Assembly (NCBI GenBank): GCA_047601445.1
Contig: JASGJH010000001.1
Coordinates: 7,136,001 to 7,200,000 of the forward strand
Length of the DNA: 64,000 nt
Source: Myxococcales bacterium
GTDB taxonomy: Bacteria > Myxococcota_A > Polyangia > Polyangiales > DASUME01
Direction: 5' to 3'
The notes beneath the pieces were generated by a model that made no database searches, had not been told where the DNA came from, and saw only the letters and a program-made list of their open reading frames with translations. The stretch's first letter is position 1. Every line of letters starts with the position of its first letter. This document shows, piece after piece, positions 1 through 22,770 of this stretch. A program made the position numbers and the translations under genes.

Positions 1-39
1 CTCAGCCAGTGGGCGCTATCATGGCGCCCGGTAAGAGTC

Positions 40-1137
40 ATGACTTGGTTGAACAGTCTCCTGGATACGGCCGGATTCCCCGCGCGGTGGCACTGCGGCA
101 ACTGGACACCCCTGCACGGTTGGCTTCACGTGTCGGCCGACTTGCTGGTGTTCGGCGCCTACGCCGCGATCCCGGTGGCGCTCGTGTACTTCATCCGCAA
201 GCGCAGCGACGTTCCGTTCTTGCCCATCTTGTGGCTGTTCGCCGCGTTCATTCTGGCCTGCGGCTTCGGACATCTGGTCGACGCCACCATCTTTTGGGCA
301 CCGCGTTACCGGCTCCTGACGGGCTCGAAGCTCATCACGGCCCTGGTCTCCTGGACCACCGTCATCGCGCTCGTACGCGTGTTGCCCAAGGCGCTGGCCC
401 TGCACGCAGACCTGGATCGACGCGTGCAAGATCGTACCGCCGAGCTCTCCGCCATGCTCGTGGAGCGCGAGGTGCTGCTGCGTGAAGTCCACCACCGCGT
501 GAAGAACAACCTGCAAATGATCCTGAGTCTGATCAACCTCCAGCGTCGTCGAGTCTCCGATGGAGCGGGCGAAGAGGCTCTCGGCTTGTGCGCCTCGCGC
601 GTGCTCGCCATCGCCCAAGTGCACGAGCTCCTCTACGAGACCAAGAATGCCTCGCGCATCCCACTGGCGGCCTACGTGCGGGGGCTGGTGAGCGGCCTCG
701 ACGGGGGCGTCGGACTCCTGCCCAAGGTGAACATCGAGACCGACGTGGACGATGTGATGGTGTCCGTGGAGAGCGGTGTGCCCTGTGGGCTCATCCTCAA
801 TGAACTTCTGGCCAACGCCATCAAGCATGCCTTTCCCGGCGAGCGCCGGGGGACCATTAGCGTCTCCGTGCGCCGCTCGGCACCGGGTGAGCTCACCCTT
901 CAGGTGCGCGACGACGGCGTCGGCCTGCCACCGGACTTCGACACTAGGCCCGGCAATTCTCTTGGGCTCAGCATCGTGCGCCGGTTGGCCAGCCAGTTGA
1001 AGGGCGAGCTCACTATCTCGCGCGAGCAGGGCACCACGTTTCGGGTCTCGTTCCCCGCGCAAGACCTGGTGCTGCGCGGTGAGGGGAGCGCGCCCCCTGT
1101 ATCCACGAACGTTCGACTGGAGGCCGCACTGCCATGA
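40..1137 (+). CDS. Membrane sensor histidine kinase (HisKA_2/HWE-like) with N-terminal ETR1-like ethylene-binding domain
   Basis: Three hydrophobic helices carrying SADLLVFGAYAAIP...FILACGFGH...KLITALVS; H-box EVHHRVKNNLQ; N-box NELLANAIKHAF; G-boxes DDGVG and SLGLSIV. Confidence 0.92.
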   Translation: MTWLNSLLDTAGFPARWHCGNWTPLHGWLHVSADLLVFGAYAAIPVALVYFIRKRSDVPFLPILWLFAAFILACGFGHLVDATIFWAPRYRLLTGSKLITALVSWTTVIALVRVLPKALALHADLDRRVQDRTAELSAMLVEREVLLREVHHRVKNNLQMILSLINLQRRRVSDGAGEEALGLCASRVLAIAQVHELLYETKNASRIPLAAYVRGLVSGLDGGVGLLPKVNIETDVDDVMVSVESGVPCGLILNELLANAIKHAFPGERRGTISVSVRRSAPGELTLQVRDDGVGLPPDFDTRPGNSLGLSIVRRLASQLKGELTISREQGTTFRVSFPAQDLVLRGEGSAPPVSTNVRLEAALP

Positions 1138-1778
1138 ATAGCGAGTTGTCACGCTTCGAGGAAAGTCCAGGCCGCGTCATGATCGTCGAGGACGATCGTC
1201 TGGTCGCCCTCGATCTGGAGACCATGTTGGAGGGCTTCGGTTTCAAGCTGTGCCCGACGGCCCACTCGGCCGAGGACGCGCTGGACATCGCCCACCGTCA
1301 TCAGCCCGACCTGGTGCTGATGGACATTCGCCTGGAAGGCGAGATGGACGGGATCACCGCGGCTTCCGTGCTGAGCGAGAAGCTGGGCATCCAGGTGGTC
1401 TACTTGACCGCCCACTCGGATCTCTCCACCGTGAACCGCGCCAAGGAGACGCATCCTTACGGGTATCTGCTGAAGCCCGTGCGCGCCCTCGACCTGCGCT
1501 GCTGTCTGGAGGTAGCCCTGCACAAGGCGCGGCACTCGCCGCACTCGTCCGGCAGCGAGTCCAAGACGGTCTCGTCGACCCTGCTCAACGGGCTCAGCGC
1601 CCGCGAAGTCGAGGTGCTCGGGCTGATCGCGCGCGGCCACACCAGCAAGGACATCGCCCAGGTCCTCAACATCGCCAAGCCCACCGTGGACACCTACCGC
1701 AGCCGCCTGGCCGACAAGCTCGGCGTGCGCAGTCGCAGCGAACTGGTGGCCATCGCGGGCCGAGCCGGCCTCTTGTAG
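1134..1778 (+). CDS. Response regulator, REC plus C-terminal LuxR-type HTH
   Basis: IVEDD, LVLMDI (phospho-acceptor), YLTAH, LLKP; LSAREVEVLGLIARGHTSKDIAQVLNIAKPTV; ATGA overlap with the kinase stop. Confidence 0.93.
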   Translation: MNSELSRFEESPGRVMIVEDDRLVALDLETMLEGFGFKLCPTAHSAEDALDIAHRHQPDLVLMDIRLEGEMDGITAASVLSEKLGIQVVYLTAHSDLSTVNRAKETHPYGYLLKPVRALDLRCCLEVALHKARHSPHSSGSESKTVSSTLLNGLSAREVEVLGLIARGHTSKDIAQVLNIAKPTVDTYRSRLADKLGVRSRSELVAIAGRAGLL

Positions 1779-2004
1779 AGCACCCCCTAGTACTCCGAAA
1801 ACGCCCTGAAACGTTGGCGATTTCGCCGGAAAACGGGCGGACAGCACATTTTTGTCCGCTTTTCCGACGCGATTGTCGAGACCGGGTCCTTCGGCGTTGG
1901 AACGACTCACGAATTCCTCGAATCGACCGGGCCTCCAGGGTGGCATGCGGCGTGCGATGAGCGGCTTCAGACATCCGTCGCCACCCTTCGCCATCAGGTC
2001 CACC

Positions 2005-2202
2005 ATGCCTCCGTTCACGTCGATCGATGCGGCCTCCTTCCTCGGCTACGCGACCTTCGCCTGGGCCCTCTTCGTCAGCGCGGCCCTGCTTTCGCCGCCC
2101 GTCGCCGACGAGCCACGACCGGCCTCGGCCCGCACGCGCACCCTGGCCAAGCTGGCCCGCAGACGCAGCAGCTTGGCTCCGCGCGAACCGCGCCACGACT
2201 GA
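2005..2202 (+). CDS. Small hypothetical protein with one hydrophobic helix
   Basis: ATG at 2005; MPPFTSIDAASFLGYATFAWALFVSAALLSPP followed by a basic tail; GC3-rich codons. Confidence 0.4.
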   Translation: MPPFTSIDAASFLGYATFAWALFVSAALLSPPVADEPRPASARTRTLAKLARRRSSLAPREPRHD

Positions 2203-2338
2203 AGACCGCGAACCACCGCACTGGTCACGCAGGCGGATGAGCGCTTACCTCGGTCACTTGTAATTACTTGTCTCGCTTCCATAGCGAGCGTGCGATCGGT
2301 GCCCACTCAAAGGGCGATCCATGCCGAAGGAGGCACCC

Positions 2339-3073
2339 ATGAATGCCAAGCATTTCACGGCGCTTGCCCTGTGTTCCGGGCTCTTGGCCTGCAACAGCGG
2401 GAAGCAGCTGGAGCGAGCCGAGGAGACGCAAGCGGAGCACGCCCAGAGCGCGGCGGAGAAGCAAGCCGAGCTCGACAGCAAGCAACGAGACCAGCAGCAG
2501 AGGTTGTCGCGCGATATCGCAGAAGAGAACAAAGACCTCAAGAACGAGGAGATCAAGACCGAGGACCAGATGGCGAACACGGCCGAGCGGGCGGCCAACA
2601 AGCTCAACGCCGAGCAAGCCGAATACAACGAAGATCGCGTGAAGGTCGGCACCGACCAGGCGATGAAGCGCGAGGATCTCAACGAAGAGCAGCAAGAGCA
2701 GCGCGCCAAGCTCGACAAGAAGCTCGCCGACCAGCGCAGCGAGGACGCCGAGCGCGTTCAGAAGGCCGAGGCCAAGGTCCAGGAGCGGCGCAACGAGATC
2801 GCCAAGGATTCGCGCGAGCAACTCACGGACCTCGATCAGCGCACCGTGAGTGTGCGCAACAAGGTCGCCGATGCCGCGGACGCCGAGACGCGCGACAAGG
2901 CGAACAAGGAGCTGGCGGCCGTGCCGGCCCAGCGCGATGCCATCGAGCGAGACATCGAAGCCCTCGACACCATCAAGGCCGAGAACCTGAGCCGCGCCCG
3001 GTCGCAGCTCAAAGATCGTCTGTCGAACCTGGACGACACGCTCGACCGCGCCGAGAACGACCTGGTGCGCTGA
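2339..3073 (+). CDS. Coiled-coil lipoprotein
   Basis: GGAGG before ATG 2339; lipobox LLAC; E/K/Q/A-rich helical body. Confidence 0.85.
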   Translation: MNAKHFTALALCSGLLACNSGKQLERAEETQAEHAQSAAEKQAELDSKQRDQQQRLSRDIAEENKDLKNEEIKTEDQMANTAERAANKLNAEQAEYNEDRVKVGTDQAMKREDLNEEQQEQRAKLDKKLADQRSEDAERVQKAEAKVQERRNEIAKDSREQLTDLDQRTVSVRNKVADAADAETRDKANKELAAVPAQRDAIERDIEALDTIKAENLSRARSQLKDRLSNLDDTLDRAENDLVR

Positions 3074-3283
3074 CGAAGGTGCCGAGCGCGCGGCGCGAGA
3101 GCGAGCCCCGGCATCGCCTCCTCGGCCCATTTCGTGTTCGGGCCTCGAAACGCTGTGCCGTCACTGCGCCGGTTCGTGAGCGAAGCGGACCCGCGCTGAG
3201 GCGAGACCGCGGGAAGGTCGCGTGAGCTCCCCGCGATAAGCCGCGACGGCGGGGAAGTCGCATGGCCCCCCTGTGATAAGCGT

Positions 3284-3718
3284 CTAGCTGAGGCGCTTCT
3301 TGAGCGCGCTGATCGCATCGTGGGTCCGCTTCTGCTCGGGTAGCAGCCGCGTCTCCACGAGCTGACGCGCTTCGATGTCCAGGTCCTTCATGTCCCGTCG
3401 GTAGTCGTCTCGCCCGTGGTCTTCGCCCTCCTCGAGCACGGCGATGGCGGTCTTCTCTCCGAGTGCCGTCGCCGTTCCTTCCACAGCCATGGCAAATTGC
3501 CCCCACAGCCCCGACGTCTGTGCCGGCGTGCCGCCACGAGGCCTGATCTCATCCGACAGCTCGGAGACGCGCGTGGAGTGGGATTGCTCGCACGCCTGCA
3601 GGATGGCCTGGTGTGACGGAAGCTTCTTGATCGCCTGCCGATACGCCTCGACCGCCGACAGCTCACCGCGCAGGAACGAGTTCAAGTGGTTCACGGTGTC
3701 GATATTCGTGGCTGCCAT
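3284..3718 (-). CDS. DUF2383/PA2169-like ferritin-like four-helix-bundle protein
   Basis: GGAGG RBS; LNSFLRGELSAVEAY...H, EEGEDHG...Y, EQKRTHD. Confidence 0.85.
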   Translation of the reverse strand: MAATNIDTVNHLNSFLRGELSAVEAYRQAIKKLPSHQAILQACEQSHSTRVSELSDEIRPRGGTPAQTSGLWGQFAMAVEGTATALGEKTAIAVLEEGEDHGRDDYRRDMKDLDIEARQLVETRLLPEQKRTHDAISALKKRLS

Positions 3719-4154
3719 GGTTCCTCCTGGGGTTTGGAACAGGTTCACCACAGCTCGCATCAACTGGGCCAAGGTCGCAGCCGCGCCCATCCCGCGTCGC
3801 ACGCGACTTGGCCGTCTCTCGAGGGCTGCGAGGGAGGTGCGGCGCAGGTCGTGTCAGCCGCTTGCGTACGTGTGCGCCAAACGTCTCCCGCCGCCGCCAG
3901 AACGCGAGACCGTCAGATCTTCCAGACTCTCTCCGCGCTGACTCGCCGTCGTGCAGAGTTGGTTTCGATTGCTTCGTGTTTGCAACGCGGCGCTGCTCGA
4001 ACGCCCGTTGTGGTCACTGGCGGCGGAGTTTTACTCTTGTTTTGCTATGCGAATCGTCGCCGCGATTACACGCGCGAGGGGGGTCGATGGCCGCGCGTAG
4101 TGCCTGCGAGGTTGCATCTTGCAATGCGCGAATGAGGCTGATTGAATTTACAGC

Positions 4155-4586
4155 ATGAGCTTCCCCCGTCGCATGGGGCCAGCCCTCGCGCTGGCCACAC
4201 TGATCTCGTTTACCCACGTCGCGTCTTCGCACGCCGACGACATCACCAGCGGCAGCAGTGCACCCGCCGCAGAACTCACCATCAGTGCACCTGCCACCAT
4301 CGATGCCAACTGGTACACCGGCGGTACGCTGCACAAGGCGACCGCTCGCGAGTGGCTCCAGGGCAGCACGCAAAATCAGCTGGCCACCGCCTCTGATTGG
4401 GTGCTTACGTCCAAGGACCAGAAAGCCAAGGTTGACGCCGCAGCAGGCAACATGAGCCTGGTGCTGCCTTCGGCCGACAAACTTCGTCAGTGCATCAACG
4501 CGGCGCTACGACGCCACTCGGACCTGTACTCGAGCATGCCAGCGTCCGACATCGCCATGACCTGCATGATCACGCTCAAGATCTGA
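4155..4586 (+). CDS. Secreted hypothetical protein
   Basis: Signal peptide ending SHA; WYTGGTLH...W...QLATASDW block; two C-terminal Cys. Confidence 0.75.
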   Translation: MSFPRRMGPALALATLISFTHVASSHADDITSGSSAPAAELTISAPATIDANWYTGGTLHKATAREWLQGSTQNQLATASDWVLTSKDQKAKVDAAAGNMSLVLPSADKLRQCINAALRRHSDLYSSMPASDIAMTCMITLKI

Positions 4587-4628
4587 TACCTCGCTCCTGA
4601 ATCGGGTGGCGGGGGCCTCCGAACGAAA

Positions 4629-5129
4629 TCACTTCTTCGCGCTACGTGCGACCTGGGCGGCCGTCTTGAGCCAGCCGCGCACGGCAGCCAGCGGTAGCTC
4701 CTCGAGCGACGTCAGCTTGAGGTGGCGGCCTGTTTTTCCTTCGCCCGTGAGGCGCTGCTCCGGGTCGGCGTAGGTTCCGGGCGGACCGGATAGAATCAGG
4801 TTTACATGGGCCTTGTGCGCGCCGAGCGCGCACACCGTGGCGCCGCCAATCGAGTAGAAGGGCATGCCCCACTTGAGCGAAGACTCGGCCTCGGGCGCAG
4901 CTTTGTCGACCAGCTCACGCAGTTTTTCCAGGATGGCGCGCAGCGGGGGCGGCTGCTTGGCGAAGAAGGCGTCGATGGGTGCGCCGAAGTCTGCCCGCGC
5001 CATGGGGCGCGCGCGCTTGGTTTTGGCGGGGGATTGGGCCTTGGCGGCGGGACGCTTGACGCTCGACGTCTTGCTCGGCCGCTTGGCGGGGGCTTTTTTC
5101 GCCGTGGTTTTCGCGGGGCTGCCCTTCAC
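4629..5129 (-). CDS. DUF1801 (YdhG-like) protein with Lys/Ala-rich N-terminal tail
   Basis: LRELV..AAPEAESSLKWGMPFY...AHKAHVNL...GEGKTGRHLK; N-terminus AKTTAKKAPAK. Confidence 0.85.
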   Translation of the reverse strand: MKGSPAKTTAKKAPAKRPSKTSSVKRPAAKAQSPAKTKRARPMARADFGAPIDAFFAKQPPPLRAILEKLRELVDKAAPEAESSLKWGMPFYSIGGATVCALGAHKAHVNLILSGPPGTYADPEQRLTGEGKTGRHLKLTSLEELPLAAVRGWLKTAAQVARSAKK

Positions 5130-5393
5130 GGGCCAAGCCTGGCACGCGGCGATGGCGGCGCGCCACCGATTGGCACCATGGTTGGACCACCGCTGTTTTG
5201 CCCCGACCTGAGGACAAAGGTCGTTCCGCGGCGATGGGCTCTTTCCGAGCTCGGATGATCGGAGGGGATACGGAGTTGGCCGATTCGATTACACCAGCGC
5301 CCGCCCCCAACTCGGAGTAGCCCGAAAAACTAGGGTTGTCAGGCCCTTACAAGCGGTGCAAACCTGGCCATTCGTGTCTCAAGGGGGGGGTGC

Positions 5394-6797
5394 ATGAAGG
5401 CAGTCGAGCCGAGCGATCAGTTGTTTTTGTTCATCGAGCGCAGGCAACAGCCGATGCACGTGGGGGGCTTGCAGCTCTTCTCCCTGCCTGAGGGAGCGGG
5501 GCCCAAGTTCGTGCTCGACCTCGTGGAGCAACTGCGCGCCTTCCGTCATCCGTCGCCGCCCTTCAACAAGCGCTTGGTGTCGCGCTTCGGAGCTTCCTTC
5601 TGGGAAGAAGACACCGAGCTCGATCTGGACCTGCACTTGCGTCACGGCGCCCTGCCGCAGCCGGGCCGCGTGCGTGAGCTTCTGAGCTTGGTCTCCGCGG
5701 AGCACTCCATCTTGCTCGATCGCGAGCGCCCGCTCTGGGAGACGCACCTCATCGAGGGCCTCTCGCAGGGGCGCTTCGCCATGTACACCAAGGTCCACCA
5801 CGGCTTGATGGACGGCATCTCCGTGATGCGTCTCGGCATGCAAGCGCTCTCGCACGACCCGAACGAGCGCAATATGCCGCCCTTCTGGGCCCTCCCGCGC
5901 AAGCGCCGCATCCGCGACGCCGAAGCCAACGTCGGCTTCTACACGGACACCACAGCGCGCTACCTTGGGGCCACGCCGGCCGTGCTGCGCGAAGCCTTCA
6001 ACGTTTTCGTGCGCGCGCAGCGCAACCCGGACAGCGTGGGCTTGTATGCCGCGCCCCACTGCAAGCTGAGCGAGAAGATCACGGGCTCGCGCCGCGTGGC
6101 ATGTCAGTCCTATTCACTCACGCGGGTGAAGGCCATCGCCAAAGTGTTCGGCGCCACCGTGAACGACGTGGTGCTCGGGGTGTGCAGCAGCGCGCTGCGC
6201 GGCTACCTGATGAACCAGAACGCCCTGCCCGATAAGCCCCTGATCGCCATGGTGCCCATGTCCATCCGCAAGGACGACAGCGCCGGTGGCAATCAGTTCG
6301 CCGTCATCCTGACCAACCTCGGCACGCACCTGAGCGACCCGGTCGAGCGTCTGCGCGTGATCAAGAACTCGGTGGACGAAGCCAAGACGCGCTACGCCCA
6401 GATGAACAACGAGGAGAGCTCCACGTTCAGCGCAATGGCGCTGGCTCCCGTGCTCTACAACCTGTTCACCGGCCTCAGGCCCAAGTGGATGTCGTTCAAC
6501 GTGGTGATCTCCAACGTGCCTGGCCCCGAGAAGCCCCTCTATATGAACGGCGCGCGCCTCGAGGGCATGTATCCGGTGTCCATCGTGCACGACCACAACG
6601 CGCTGAACATCACCTTCACCAGCTATCGCGACCAGCTCGAGTTCGGCGTGGTCGGCTGCCGGCGCACGTTGCCCTCGATGCAGCGATTGCTGGACCACAT
6701 CGAGCGCGCCATCACCGAGTTCGAGCGCGCGGCCGGGCTCGGCGGCAAGTCGACGCCGGTCGAGAACGCCACCAAGTGGTCATTCCTCGACGCCTAG
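5394..6797 (+). CDS. Wax ester synthase/diacylglycerol acyltransferase (WS/DGAT)
   Basis: PMHVGGL, LDRERPLWE, catalytic HHGLMDG, TVNDVVL, NVVISNVPGP. Confidence 0.96.
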   Translation: MKAVEPSDQLFLFIERRQQPMHVGGLQLFSLPEGAGPKFVLDLVEQLRAFRHPSPPFNKRLVSRFGASFWEEDTELDLDLHLRHGALPQPGRVRELLSLVSAEHSILLDRERPLWETHLIEGLSQGRFAMYTKVHHGLMDGISVMRLGMQALSHDPNERNMPPFWALPRKRRIRDAEANVGFYTDTTARYLGATPAVLREAFNVFVRAQRNPDSVGLYAAPHCKLSEKITGSRRVACQSYSLTRVKAIAKVFGATVNDVVLGVCSSALRGYLMNQNALPDKPLIAMVPMSIRKDDSAGGNQFAVILTNLGTHLSDPVERLRVIKNSVDEAKTRYAQMNNEESSTFSAMALAPVLYNLFTGLRPKWMSFNVVISNVPGPEKPLYMNGARLEGMYPVSIVHDHNALNITFTSYRDQLEFGVVGCRRTLPSMQRLLDHIERAITEFERAAGLGGKSTPVENATKWSFLDA

Positions 6798-6811
6798 GCG
6801 TGGCTTTGCCG

Positions 6812-6914
6812 CCGTGCGCGTGCACGTGCACGTGCTCGAACATGGAAGCCCGGCTTTGCTTCGCCGTGGCGCTGACGAGCACGAGCACGCGGTGAAACGG
6901 GGAGTGCTACTCCC
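6812..6914. repeat. Hexamer-based inverted repeat plus a second hairpin between convergent genes
   Basis: CGTGCG-CGTGCA-CGTGCA-CGTGCTCG (6813-6838) pairs with CGAGCA-CGAGCA-CGCGG (6876-6892); GGGAGT-GCT-ACTCCC at 6900-6914. Confidence 0.6.
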
Positions 6915-6920
6915 GCATGA

Positions 6921-7325
6921 CTAAACCTCGCGCAGCCATGCCATGGCGTCGGCCACATTGGGAAAGCCCTTGATCAACGTGTTGGACGCGAGGCTTACGG
7001 TCGCGATGGCGAAGGCGATCGACTTCAGCTCGTGGGCGACTGCGATGCGGTGCAGACGAGCGTGGTAGTCGCGGAAGAAGTCGATGTGTGCCAGCGGGAA
7101 CTTGGGGCTGTAGCTGTGAAGCTCCATTGCCTCGAACAGCAGCGAGACCGGCCCGCTCTCGGCATCGATCAAGCGACTCAAGCTCGACAGATATGCAGTG
7201 TCATCCGCGGATAGATTGCCGACGCATTTGATCTCGACCATGCCGGGCGCGATCAAACGTGCTTGCGCTCGAGCGAGTGACTGACTTGCTTTGATCCCGG
7301 GCAACATGCCCGAGATGATACGCAA
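6921..7325 (-). CDS. STAS/SEC14 (SpoIIAA-like) domain protein
   Basis: GNLSADD...VSLLFEAMELHSY...RIAVA...FPNVADAMAWL; start uncertain. Confidence 0.7.
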   Translation of the reverse strand: MRIISGMLPGIKASQSLARAQARLIAPGMVEIKCVGNLSADDTAYLSSLSRLIDAESGPVSLLFEAMELHSYSPKFPLAHIDFFRDYHARLHRIAVAHELKSIAFAIATVSLASNTLIKGFPNVADAMAWLREV

Positions 7326-7425
7326 GACTCGCGCGCTGCCGAAAGGTCACAACTCGGTGAATCCGTGATGGGAAGGGCAAGCAACGCTTCGTGGTGATTT
7401 TGTCAGCACGCGCGAGCAGGTTGGG

Positions 7426-8205
7426 TCACGGATCTTGAAAGCCTTCGCGTCGATAGGTGAGCACGAGCGTATCGCGGTGCGGCTTGTCGACGCTCTCGCC
7501 ATCGGGCTGGATGGGCGTGGTCTCGTGGATCACGCGCTCGTCATCCAAAATCAGTACGGACCACGGCTCGCTCAGCGTGAAGCGCAAACCCTCGGGGCGG
7601 TGCGCGTCGAAAACCCGCGTCTCGCCGCCGCGGATATGGCTGCGAGCGATGAGGAACAGCGCCACGAAGTCCACGCCGTCGCGGTGGGCACCCTCGGGGG
7701 TGGGGCGGCCGATGCCATCGTCCGTGCCGATGCGGAACTGGTGAGCCTCGACGTACCAGCGTTGCCCTCGCTCCGCGTCGTCGCGCGAAGTCGCGACAGC
7801 GGGCTTGAGACGCGTGAAGAGCGCGCCCAGGCCGAGCAAGAGACGGCCGAAGGCGGGCGCCTCCTCGAGCGCGGGCTCGATGGGCGAAAACCAGCGACGC
7901 ATGCCCCCATGCAGCGCGTTGTACTGCGGAGGCTGAAAGTGTGCGCGATGCGTGACCCGTTCGCAGCGCTCGGCATGCACCACGTACGAGGCGTGTCGAC
8001 GACGTCGGTAGTGACCGCCGTCTTTCAGGTAGGGGTCCGTCGGCAGCTCATCCCACTCGCGGGCGAGCGCGCCGAGCACCTGCGTGTCCGCGGCGGCCAG
8101 CGCGTGCGTGAAGAGGCTATCGGCGACGGCGTAGCCCTGCCGACGCAAGGTGGCGGGCAGGGCATCGGGGGCGGTGAGTGGCGGGGCGAACTCGGGCAAC
8201 GACAT
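7426..8205 (-). CDS. 2OG-Fe(II) dioxygenase (2OG-Fe_Oxy_2/BsmA-like family)
   Basis: DPYLKDGGHYRRRRH, YNALHGG, PTPEGAHRDGVD (HxD), VIHETTPI, RDTLVLT. Confidence 0.9.
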   Translation of the reverse strand: MSLPEFAPPLTAPDALPATLRRQGYAVADSLFTHALAAADTQVLGALAREWDELPTDPYLKDGGHYRRRRHASYVVHAERCERVTHRAHFQPPQYNALHGGMRRWFSPIEPALEEAPAFGRLLLGLGALFTRLKPAVATSRDDAERGQRWYVEAHQFRIGTDDGIGRPTPEGAHRDGVDFVALFLIARSHIRGGETRVFDAHRPEGLRFTLSEPWSVLILDDERVIHETTPIQPDGESVDKPHRDTLVLTYRREGFQDP

Positions 8206-22080: not shown

Positions 22081-22770
22081 ATGTCTCTTCGACTTTCTTC
22101 GGTCATGGCGGGTGCGGCGGTGTTGTTGAGCAGCGCGGGGGCATACGCGCATATCTCCATCCCCGGGCCGGCCTATGCTGGCACCTCCCAGGTGCTCACC
22201 TTCAACGTCGGGCACGGTTGTGAGGGCTCCGACACGGTGAAGGTCGAGATCCAGATTCCGCCCGAAGTCACCACCGTACGTGGCCTGCCCAGCTTCTTCG
22301 GCTTCGCCGACGTCAAGACCAACGAGGCCGGCGTGGTGACCTCGGTGGTCTTCACCAAGGACCTGATCCGCAACCAGGACGACCAGTTCTACGAGCTGAA
22401 GATCCGCATCAAGGTGCCCGAGACGCCCTTCGAGACGCTCTACTTTCCCACCATCCAGTACTGCCGCGCGGCCGACGGCAGCGAGCCCGCGCCTGCCCGC
22501 TGGACGCTGACTCCGGCCAACCCCACCGAAGAGGGCGCGGAAGAGTCGCCCCACGCGGTGATCTTGCCAGTGCGCAAGCCCGGCTGGACCAAGCTTACGG
22601 TGGCCAAGGAGATCACCGATCTCACCATCTTCGACGACGCGCTGATCGTCTGGGCCGGCAACAGCGCCTACAGCTCCAACGACACCACCAAGGCACAGAT
22701 CGCCATGGAGGCCGGAGTTACGCCGCTCACCAAGATCGACGCCAACACCGAGATCTGGATCAAGTACTGA
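22081..22770 (+). CDS. YcnI/DUF1775 family copper-binding protein
   Basis: GGAG RBS; signal ending AYA with His as first mature residue (HISI); VGHGCEG, LYFPTIQYC, P.AVIL. Confidence 0.85.
   Translation: MSLRLSSVMAGAAVLLSSAGAYAHISIPGPAYAGTSQVLTFNVGHGCEGSDTVKVEIQIPPEVTTVRGLPSFFGFADVKTNEAGVVTSVVFTKDLIRNQDDQFYELKIRIKVPETPFETLYFPTIQYCRAADGSEPAPARWTLTPANPTEEGAEESPHAVILPVRKPGWTKLTVAKEITDLTIFDDALIVWAGNSAYSSNDTTKAQIAMEAGVTPLTKIDANTEIWIKY

Follow-up and report, generated by a model that had tools for sequence, protein, structure and literature searches.

How few parts does a bacterium need to turn a gaseous signal into a change in transcription? The question is raised by two genes that open a stretch of 64,000 nucleotides (nt) of a Myxococcales genome (G000:C1:7136001-7200000 of a single contig of 9.5 Mb), referred to here as the window. 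In the list of open reading frames (ORFs) the genes occupy 40-1137 and 1134-1778 on the + strand and encode proteins of 365 and 214 amino acids (aa), a sensor histidine kinase and a response regulator. The kinase begins with a membrane domain like that of the plant ethylene receptor ETR1, and an earlier interpretation based on the letters of the DNA, the sequence-only reading, proposed the pair as a candidate ethylene-sensing circuit. The analysis described here leads us to regard it as a two-gene two-component system in which the kinase carries an intact ETR1-type domain, probably senses ethylene and would turn the signal directly into a transcriptional change.

The ethylene-binding domain

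Residues 26-121 of the kinase match positions 2-97 of the 97-position Pfam profile ETR1_N (PF25487) with an E-value of 1.2e-33 and 115.7 bits versus a cut-off of 27, that is, along the full profile, past the curated threshold and far above chance; on the same model AzoEtr1, the proven ethylene receptor of Azospirillum brasilense Sp7, scores 132 bits. In the AlphaFold2 (AF2) model helices are predicted at residues 24-54, 61-84 and from 90 onward, with predicted local distance difference test (pLDDT) values of 91-97 in the membrane part, and three hydrophobic segments agree with them. Residue positions extracted by script place D34, Y41, I44 and P45 in helix 1, I71, C74 and H78 in helix 2 and K97, within the motif KLITALVS, in helix 3, exactly where the sequence-only reading had put them. 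Y41, I44, P45 and I71 are the counterparts of ETR1 Y32, I35, P36 and I62, which the sequence-only reading lists among the residues required for ethylene binding.

The AzoEtr1 sequence was taken from plasmid NZ_CP012915 of A. brasilense Sp7 (L111:2489-4066, 525 aa), where it was found by tblastn of residues 1-128 of the window kinase against plasmids, the equivalent search with the whole kinase being dominated by the kinase core; its identity was checked through the start of the ORF, MFGGVEAF, which corresponds to the cloning primer given in a passage of PMC11819568. BLASTP aligned the two proteins with 52 identities over 118 positions (44%), 0 gaps and an E-value of 1e-25, the window kinase running one residue behind throughout, with D34, C74, H78 and K97 falling on AzoEtr1 D35, C75, H79 and K98, and Y41, I44, P45 and I71 on Y42, I45, P46 and I72. 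Passages of PMC11819568 equate D35, C75, H79 and K98 of AzoEtr1 with D25, C65, H69 and K91 of ETR1, and report saturable binding of 14C-ethylene by the first 130 residues of AzoEtr1 and the failure of the D35A and C75A mutants to complement. From the alignment and these equivalences, the offset between the window kinase and ETR1 is +9 in helices 1 and 2 and +6 at K97. The gapless +9 register initially proposed thus stands for the first two helices and has to be corrected for the third, the loop between helices 2 and 3 being three residues shorter. For ETR1 itself, passages of PMC10266040 describe how D25, C65 and H69 take part in the binding of copper and ethylene and how the D25-K91 link contributes to signal output, with K91 mutants that still bind copper but have lost ethylene binding or signalling. 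Judged by its sequence, the N-terminal part of the window kinase is a true ethylene-binding domain of the ETR1 type, in which no ligand or relay residue is missing.

The residue counts, like the AF2 model, are based on an alignment (A1) of 37 proteins of the same architecture. D34 and K97 are invariant in it (37/37 each), C74, H78 and Y41 are found in 36 of the 37 sequences, and I44 and I71 in 35. A further hallmark precedes helix 1, namely the motif FPARWHCGNW, the Cys of which (C19) is kept in 36/37 and the leading F13 in 35/37. In its wider form, FPARW(H/Y)CGxW, this motif with its nearly invariant Cys lies outside the Pfam domain, and a Cys occupies the equivalent position in FMPHGHC, the motif of the second group of sensing domains defined below (clade B). 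Cys19 is a candidate for the formation of a disulfide-linked dimer, as in ETR1, or for copper loading. The 23 N-terminal residues that contain it are predicted to lie outside the cytoplasm because an RKR loop (aa 53-55) follows helix 1, by the positive-inside rule. Sequence and fold searches found no solved structure matching the ethylene-binding domain.

Eroded forms of the domain were also encountered. Two metagenomic relatives share the architecture of the window kinase: in P0076 the eight key positions read D-A-L-A-L-D-R-K, the signature of a decayed domain, and P0049 has lost the ETR1_N match. A different variation characterizes five loci from other genomes of the phylum (L017, L019, L021, L023 and L024), which form one sub-clade of mostly hybrid kinases: the helix-1 Asp is replaced by Asn in 5/5 with a coupled change of the helix-3 Lys to Arg in 5/5, and the Pro by Ala or Thr. 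Asn variants are mentioned in a passage of PMC10266040.

From the membrane to the regulator

Behind the sensing domain the kinase consists of a HisKA_2 domain (residues 149-219, E-value 3.8e-23, 81.8 bits versus a cut-off of 22.3) and a HATPase_c domain (residues 251-341, E-value 1.2e-18, 68 bits versus 26.4). Pfam gave no PAS or GAF match, nor any other sensor domain, in the 365 residues, in agreement with the direct fusion to a HisKA_2 kinase that had been described from the letters. The AF2 model of the whole kinase (mean pLDDT 87.8) predicts a single unbroken helix from residue 90 to residue 171, which would comprise helix 3, the linker and the H152-bearing first helix of the phospho-acceptor domain. 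The sequence H152-R-V-K-N is invariant in A1 (37/37), and H152 aligns with the His of QHRVKN in the blue-light histidine kinase EL346 (4r39). When the model was used for a fold search, kinase domains were the only matches, the best of them being the EL346 kinase domain (Foldseek E-value 3.7e-13).

The partner protein is, by its domain composition, a response regulator of the NarL/FixJ class, in which a receiver (REC) domain is followed by a GerE DNA-binding domain (Pfam Response_reg, aa 15-122, nt 1176-1499, 72.8 bits; GerE, aa 154-208, nt 1593-1757, 63.9 bits). The catalytic residues D20/D21, D64, T92 and K114 are present, which we take to be the canonical acidic pocket, phospho-accepting Asp, Thr and Lys, respectively. 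Among NCBIfam models the nearest partial matches are MctR, PhyR-type REC, TtrR and FixJ, all below their own cut-offs.

The two genes form an operon. This conclusion follows from the lack of an intervening gene upstream, where the end of a Peptidase_M90 gene lies 430 nt from the kinase gene with no gene between them (upstream region L002), from the distance of 540 nt to the next gene downstream, which encodes a lipoprotein-like coiled-coil protein (2321-3073), and from the stable hairpin (1827-1866) that precedes the latter. The hairpin was not called by a consensus terminator scan, and the region that contains it is absent from the related metagenomic locus L113 described below. A consensus promoter scan found no sigma-70-like promoter, and no Rfam family matched in window 1-8000. 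The ATG at 40 is the earliest start codon past the upstream stop, and orthologues begin at the same position. For the regulator, a start at the ATG at 1179 (M16) is possible. The ATGA junction at which the kinase stop and the regulator start overlap, a feature that the sequence-only reading had rightly pointed out together with the DNA-binding nature of the partner, is kept in L113.

Conservation of the pair and its partners elsewhere

A protein scan of genome contigs with the whole kinase gave 80 loci, essentially matches to the kinase core, none of which extended upstream of query residue 58, and no orthologue. A scan of metagenomic DNA for the linker HADLDxRVQ(E/D)RT, which is specific to the orthologues and was written as a degenerate pattern, returned a single locus, L113. 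It is syntenic with the window: the gene for the M90 peptidase is followed by those for the kinase and the regulator, the lipoprotein, a small secreted protein and the wax-ester synthase. Amino acid identity between window and L113 is 81% for the whole kinase, 86% for its sensing domain and 85% (over aligned codons) for the regulator, and the corresponding ratios of nonsynonymous to synonymous substitution rates (dN/dS) are 0.143, 0.117 and 0.156, the value of the sensing domain being the lowest of the operon. Both genes are under purifying selection, with dN/dS of about 0.15. Pairwise DNA alignment revealed, besides the leader listed in table 1, a second block conserved with L113 directly upstream of the window (L002 about 1357-1386).

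For 11 of the 20 closest kinase relatives (P0002-P0021), the longest contig is of exactly the same size as that of a relative of the REC-GerE regulator (60-86% identity). Three of these matching contigs are only 1,977, 2,571 and 4,991 bases long, L113 confirms one pairing directly, and the pairing extends to kinase variants with an added PAS domain (P0018-P0020). The same-sized contigs and L113 show, indirectly apart from L113, that kinase and regulator travel together. The closest named relatives of the two proteins, P0030 for the kinase and P0145 for the regulator, come from one Polyangiales metagenome-assembled genome (MAG) of the Myxococcota, as befits the myxobacterial source that had been deduced without knowledge of the origin of the DNA.

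The exact combination of such a kinase with a REC-GerE protein was found only in this orthologous group. Nine further ETR1_N-HisKA_2 kinases, from the order and the phylum, were examined together with their flanks, and their partners are kinases of REC-PAS-HisKA-HATPase_c or REC-HisKA-HATPase_c architecture in six cases, a double receiver in one and an upstream REC-PAS-GGDEF protein in two, with a REC-GerE partner in 0/9; relatives with a HisKA-type core have lone receivers as the following gene. At one further locus, L124, a REC-GerE gene lies upstream of the gene for the domain protein. The REC-GerE partner of the window kinase is, thus, unusual. At L159-L165, L122 and L126 the partners are REC-PAS-HisKA kinases or REC-PAS-GGDEF cyclases with receivers that resemble that of the window regulator (E-values 1e-27 to 1e-36), and from these similarities the same sensor-receiver pair seems to have been wired to differing outputs.

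Distribution and clades of the sensing domain

The domain itself is not rare. When the 128-residue sensing domain was searched against 1.84 billion cluster representatives, 7,291 matched at E <= 0.001, of which 4,560 reached <= 1e-10 and 608 reached <= 1e-30. ETR1_N exceeds the Pfam cut-off in 25 of 401 sampled genomes of the phylum (G000, the genome of the window, included) and in 54 of 401 sampled genomes of the order, the latter tally taking in one genome flagged as unpublished (G478), on which no other result depends. Among the 25 other proteins of the phylum that were scanned, 10 fuse the domain to a kinase with neither PAS nor GAF domain, and 45 of 120 listed relatives, the query included, combine ETR1_N with HisKA_2 in the absence of both. 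The genome of the window even encodes a second copy, a 401-aa protein of ETR1_N-HisKA-HATPase_c architecture (L001:1423-2625; 135.9 bits on ETR1_N), the end of which is overlapped by the gene for a lone receiver of 149 aa (locus G000:C1 about 1429599-1431162, L001:1423-2986). The rarity implied by the sequence-only reading was therefore overstated, in view of the counts for phylum and order, the second copy and the frequency of PAS-less fusions.

A tree of 41 sensing domains, in which AzoEtr1 is the sole experimentally proven receptor, separates two clades with support of 100/100 each. Besides the window protein and its orthologues, clade A, marked by FPARWHCGxW, includes named proteins from Fimbriiglobus and a Chthoniobacter-like MAG; clade B, marked by FMPHGHCYLW, comprises AzoEtr1, the second copy of the same genome and proteins from Pendulispora and a cyanobacterium. 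The genome carries one receptor-type protein of each clade, the window kinase in A and the second copy in B. According to passages of PMC7700396 and PMC11819568, putative ethylene receptors with varied output domains occur in many proteobacteria, cyanobacteria and other bacterial phyla. The literature searched contains no report of a myxobacterial ethylene receptor, as had been supposed, and the surveys by Lacey & Binder (2016) and Carlew et al. (2019) may list some. The novelty of the system is modest, since the domain family is large, already represented in Pfam and frequent in this order; no new principle is involved.

Proposed mechanism and alternatives

In the proposed chain of events, C74 and H78, assisted by D34, would coordinate a Cu(I) ion within the three-helix domain, and ethylene would bind to that copper. 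The polar link between D34 and K97 may then pass the change to helix 3, which in the model continues without a break (aa 90-171) into the HisKA_2 domain with H152. By analogy with ETR1, SynEtr1 and AzoEtr1, ethylene would lower autophosphorylation; the co-transcribed REC-GerE regulator would then receive less phosphate at D64, and the expression of target genes would change. The domain is taken as an ethylene sensor because of its full-length ETR1_N match, the gapless alignment with AzoEtr1, the conservation of the residues and the purifying selection acting on it.

Several considerations weigh against this interpretation. The sensing domain belongs, by its position in the tree, to clade A, sister to the clade B of AzoEtr1, and no tested member of clade A was seen. 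P45 is replaced by Ser in 8 of the 37 relatives of A1, so that not all of the seven residues singled out by the sequence-only reading are strictly held. Ethylene and copper binding, kinase activity and phosphotransfer are all properties that we infer from sequence, and the sign of the regulation, with ethylene as an inhibitor of the kinase, is borrowed from the other receptors. Among the neighbouring genes none linked to ethylene or copper, copper homeostasis included, adjoins the operon. The pair is, moreover, accessory and patchy, because no orthologue of the window kinase was found in the nine other genomes of the same genus (72-99% complete), where the best matches cover only the kinase core, at 39-45% identity, and in two of the nine the M90 peptidase gene is present but the operon is not next to it.

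The position in the tree leaves room for a copper domain of clade A that senses another Cu(I)-binding ligand (another alkene, carbon monoxide, an isocyanide or some other volatile) with the downstream relay unchanged. ETR1 also gives weak responses to further gases that bind Cu(I), and clade A is well separated from the clade of AzoEtr1 (100/100) and has an N-terminal motif of its own, FPARWHCG instead of FMPHGHC. However, the pocket residues that matter in ETR1 and AzoEtr1 are all present at unchanged spacing, and the two bacterial domains tested for ethylene binding that are named in passages of PMC11819568, SynEtr1 and AzoEtr1, both bind it; a ligand other than ethylene is therefore considered unlikely, albeit worth keeping in mind. 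The metal site invites a different objection, namely that the protein is a copper or redox (peroxide) sensor in which copper occupancy or the oxidation of C74 or C19, rather than a gas, sets kinase activity. The domain is indeed built around a Cys/His metal site, 36 of 37 relatives retain C19 outside the membrane, and a review relays, in a passage of PMC3546692, the proposal that oxidation of N-terminal cysteines of ETR1 mediates H2O2 signalling. Yet the non-ligand residues needed for ethylene binding or relay (Y41, I44, I71 and K97) are equally conserved, copper is still bound by the K91 mutants of ETR1 in which, according to passages of PMC10266040, ethylene binding or signalling is lost, and no copper-homeostasis gene is adjacent, which makes such a sensor improbable. 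That the membrane domain may merely anchor or dimerize a kinase that answers a cytoplasmic cue or is constitutive is suggested by the degenerate relatives P0076 and P0049, which have lost ligand residues or the ETR1_N match, and by the lack of any other sensor domain in the window kinase; this is very hard to reconcile with the retention of every key residue in the window protein and its orthologues and with the dN/dS of 0.117 in the domain, the lowest of the operon.

An ethylene-sensing kinase with a transcriptional partner remains, thus, the preferred interpretation, and a broader proposal may be built on it: the clade-A domains of the FPARWHCG type may be true ethylene sensors, with the two-gene unit as the simplest natural ethylene-to-transcription switch, a generalization that is appealing but to which we would not yet give even chances. 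If correct, one continuous helix would connect the gas site to the phospho-histidine, and the circuit would need nothing more than a LuxR-type regulator; a soil predator of the Polyangiales would obtain a direct readout of ethylene released from roots, fungi or prey; and a portable two-gene ethylene biosensor would become available, an advantage over all three receptors studied so far. The window system would extend ethylene signalling to the Myxococcota by the shortest conceivable wiring, with no second sensor domain and a regulator that itself binds DNA. These properties make it attractive for testing ethylene binding in clade A, for studying the coupling of a membrane copper site to a kinase via a single helix and for constructing a two-gene ethylene reporter.

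Feature coordinates and neighbouring genes

Table 1. Features of the operon in window coordinates, with the evidence for each.
Feature	Position	Strand	Evidence
5' leader of the kinase gene	1..39	+	GCTATCATGGCGCCCGGT common to the window and its relative L113 (pairwise DNA alignment of upstream regions)
Sensor histidine kinase, 365 aa: ETR1_N, signalling helix, HisKA_2, HATPase_c	40..1137	+	ORF, Pfam, AF2, orthologue
Pre-helix-1 motif FPARWHCGNW, aa 13-22, with Cys19; clade A hallmark	76..105	+	Alignments
Three-helix membrane ethylene-binding domain, aa 24-116	109..387	+	Pfam, AF2 helices, hydrophobic segments, AzoEtr1 alignment
Signalling helix, aa 117-148, continuous with helix 3, then HisKA_2, aa 149-219	388..696	+	AF2, Pfam
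Predicted phospho-acceptor H152	493..495	+	Alignment with EL346 motif, invariance
HATPase_c catalytic ATP-binding domain, aa 251-341	790..1062	+	Pfam, Foldseek
Overlap of kinase stop and regulator start, ATGA	1134..1137	+	Sequence; same junction in L113
Response regulator, 214 aa: REC and GerE/LuxR helix-turn-helix, NarL/FixJ class	1134..1778	+	ORF, Pfam, NCBIfam
Candidate operon terminator: stable hairpin 50-90 nt past the regulator stop	1827..1866	+	RNA fold -19.9 kcal/mol, z -3.86; inverted repeat

Downstream of the operon, about 450 nt (window 1779-2230) between the regulator and lipoprotein genes are absent from the syntenic L113, and this stretch holds a possible ORF for a 65-aa one-helix protein (2005-2202) that has no Pfam match. 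Upstream of the lipoprotein gene, an AT-rich stretch, CACTTGTAATTACTTGTCTCG, lies at 2255-2275 with the palindrome GTAATTAC at 2260-2267; it is kept in L113 bar one base and is a candidate promoter or regulator binding site. Further along are a wax-ester synthase/DGAT gene (5394-6797, +), syntenic in L113, and a 2OG-Fe_Oxy_2 dioxygenase gene (7426-8205, -), and no link of either to the operon was seen. A DUF1775 protein, a family that we take to be the YcnI-type copper-binding one, is encoded at 22081-22770 (+), 20 kb from the operon and too distant to be tied to the receptor. As a source of ethylene in the host itself, a 362-aa 2-oxoglutarate (2OG) oxygenase encoded elsewhere in the genome (L114:850-1938, -; G000:C1:3791440-3794814) was considered. 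Its best solved match, at 213 bits, is 9ovh, which is named an ethylene-forming enzyme. It occurs once in PMC12329707, a study of the ancestral reconstruction of that enzyme with a single ancestral structure, and is presumably that ancestor; the usual ethylene-forming-enzyme chains match only in part, at 66 bits, and the oxygenase was rejected as evidence of ethylene synthesis.

Comparison with known systems

The closest solved relative of kinase residues 142-340 is EL346 of Erythrobacter litoralis (PDB 4r39/4r3a; sequence E-value 2.4e-23), with which the phospho-acceptor motif HRVKN is shared. EL346 is, however, a soluble light sensor with a LOV domain, whereas the input to the window kinase is a membrane ethylene-binding domain.

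Plant receptors contain a GAF domain, reside in the endoplasmic reticulum membrane and signal mainly via the CTR1 kinase, not via a His-Asp relay. The sensing domain of Arabidopsis ETR1 and ERS1 belongs to the same family (PF25487), of which the window kinase matches the full-length profile and keeps the equivalents of D25, C65, H69 and K91, but, from the offsets of +9 and +6, the loop between helices 2 and 3 of ETR1 would be three residues longer than in the window kinase and AzoEtr1.

SynEtr1 (UirS, Slr1212) and UirR (Slr1213) of Synechocystis PCC 6803, compared here by description only, also combine a domain-kinase fusion with phosphotransfer to a DNA-binding regulator (passages of PMC11819568 and PMC3546692). 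SynEtr1 additionally contains a bilin-binding GAF photosensor and UirR is of the AraC family, as described in a passage of PMC3546692, whereas the window pair lacks a second sensor and relies on a regulator of the LuxR/GerE type.

AzoEtr1 and AzoRR-etr1 of A. brasilense Sp7 resemble the window pair in the N-terminal three-helix domain with the same spacing of the D, C, H and K residues, in the histidine kinase output and in the overlap of the AzoRR-etr1 gene with the AzoEtr1 stop codon. The differences concern the sensing domain, which is in clade B rather than clade A, and the outputs: AzoEtr1 has a PAS domain, a HisKA-type kinase and a 135-aa regulator that lacks an output domain, while the window system does without PAS, uses HisKA_2 and ends in a GerE-bearing regulator.

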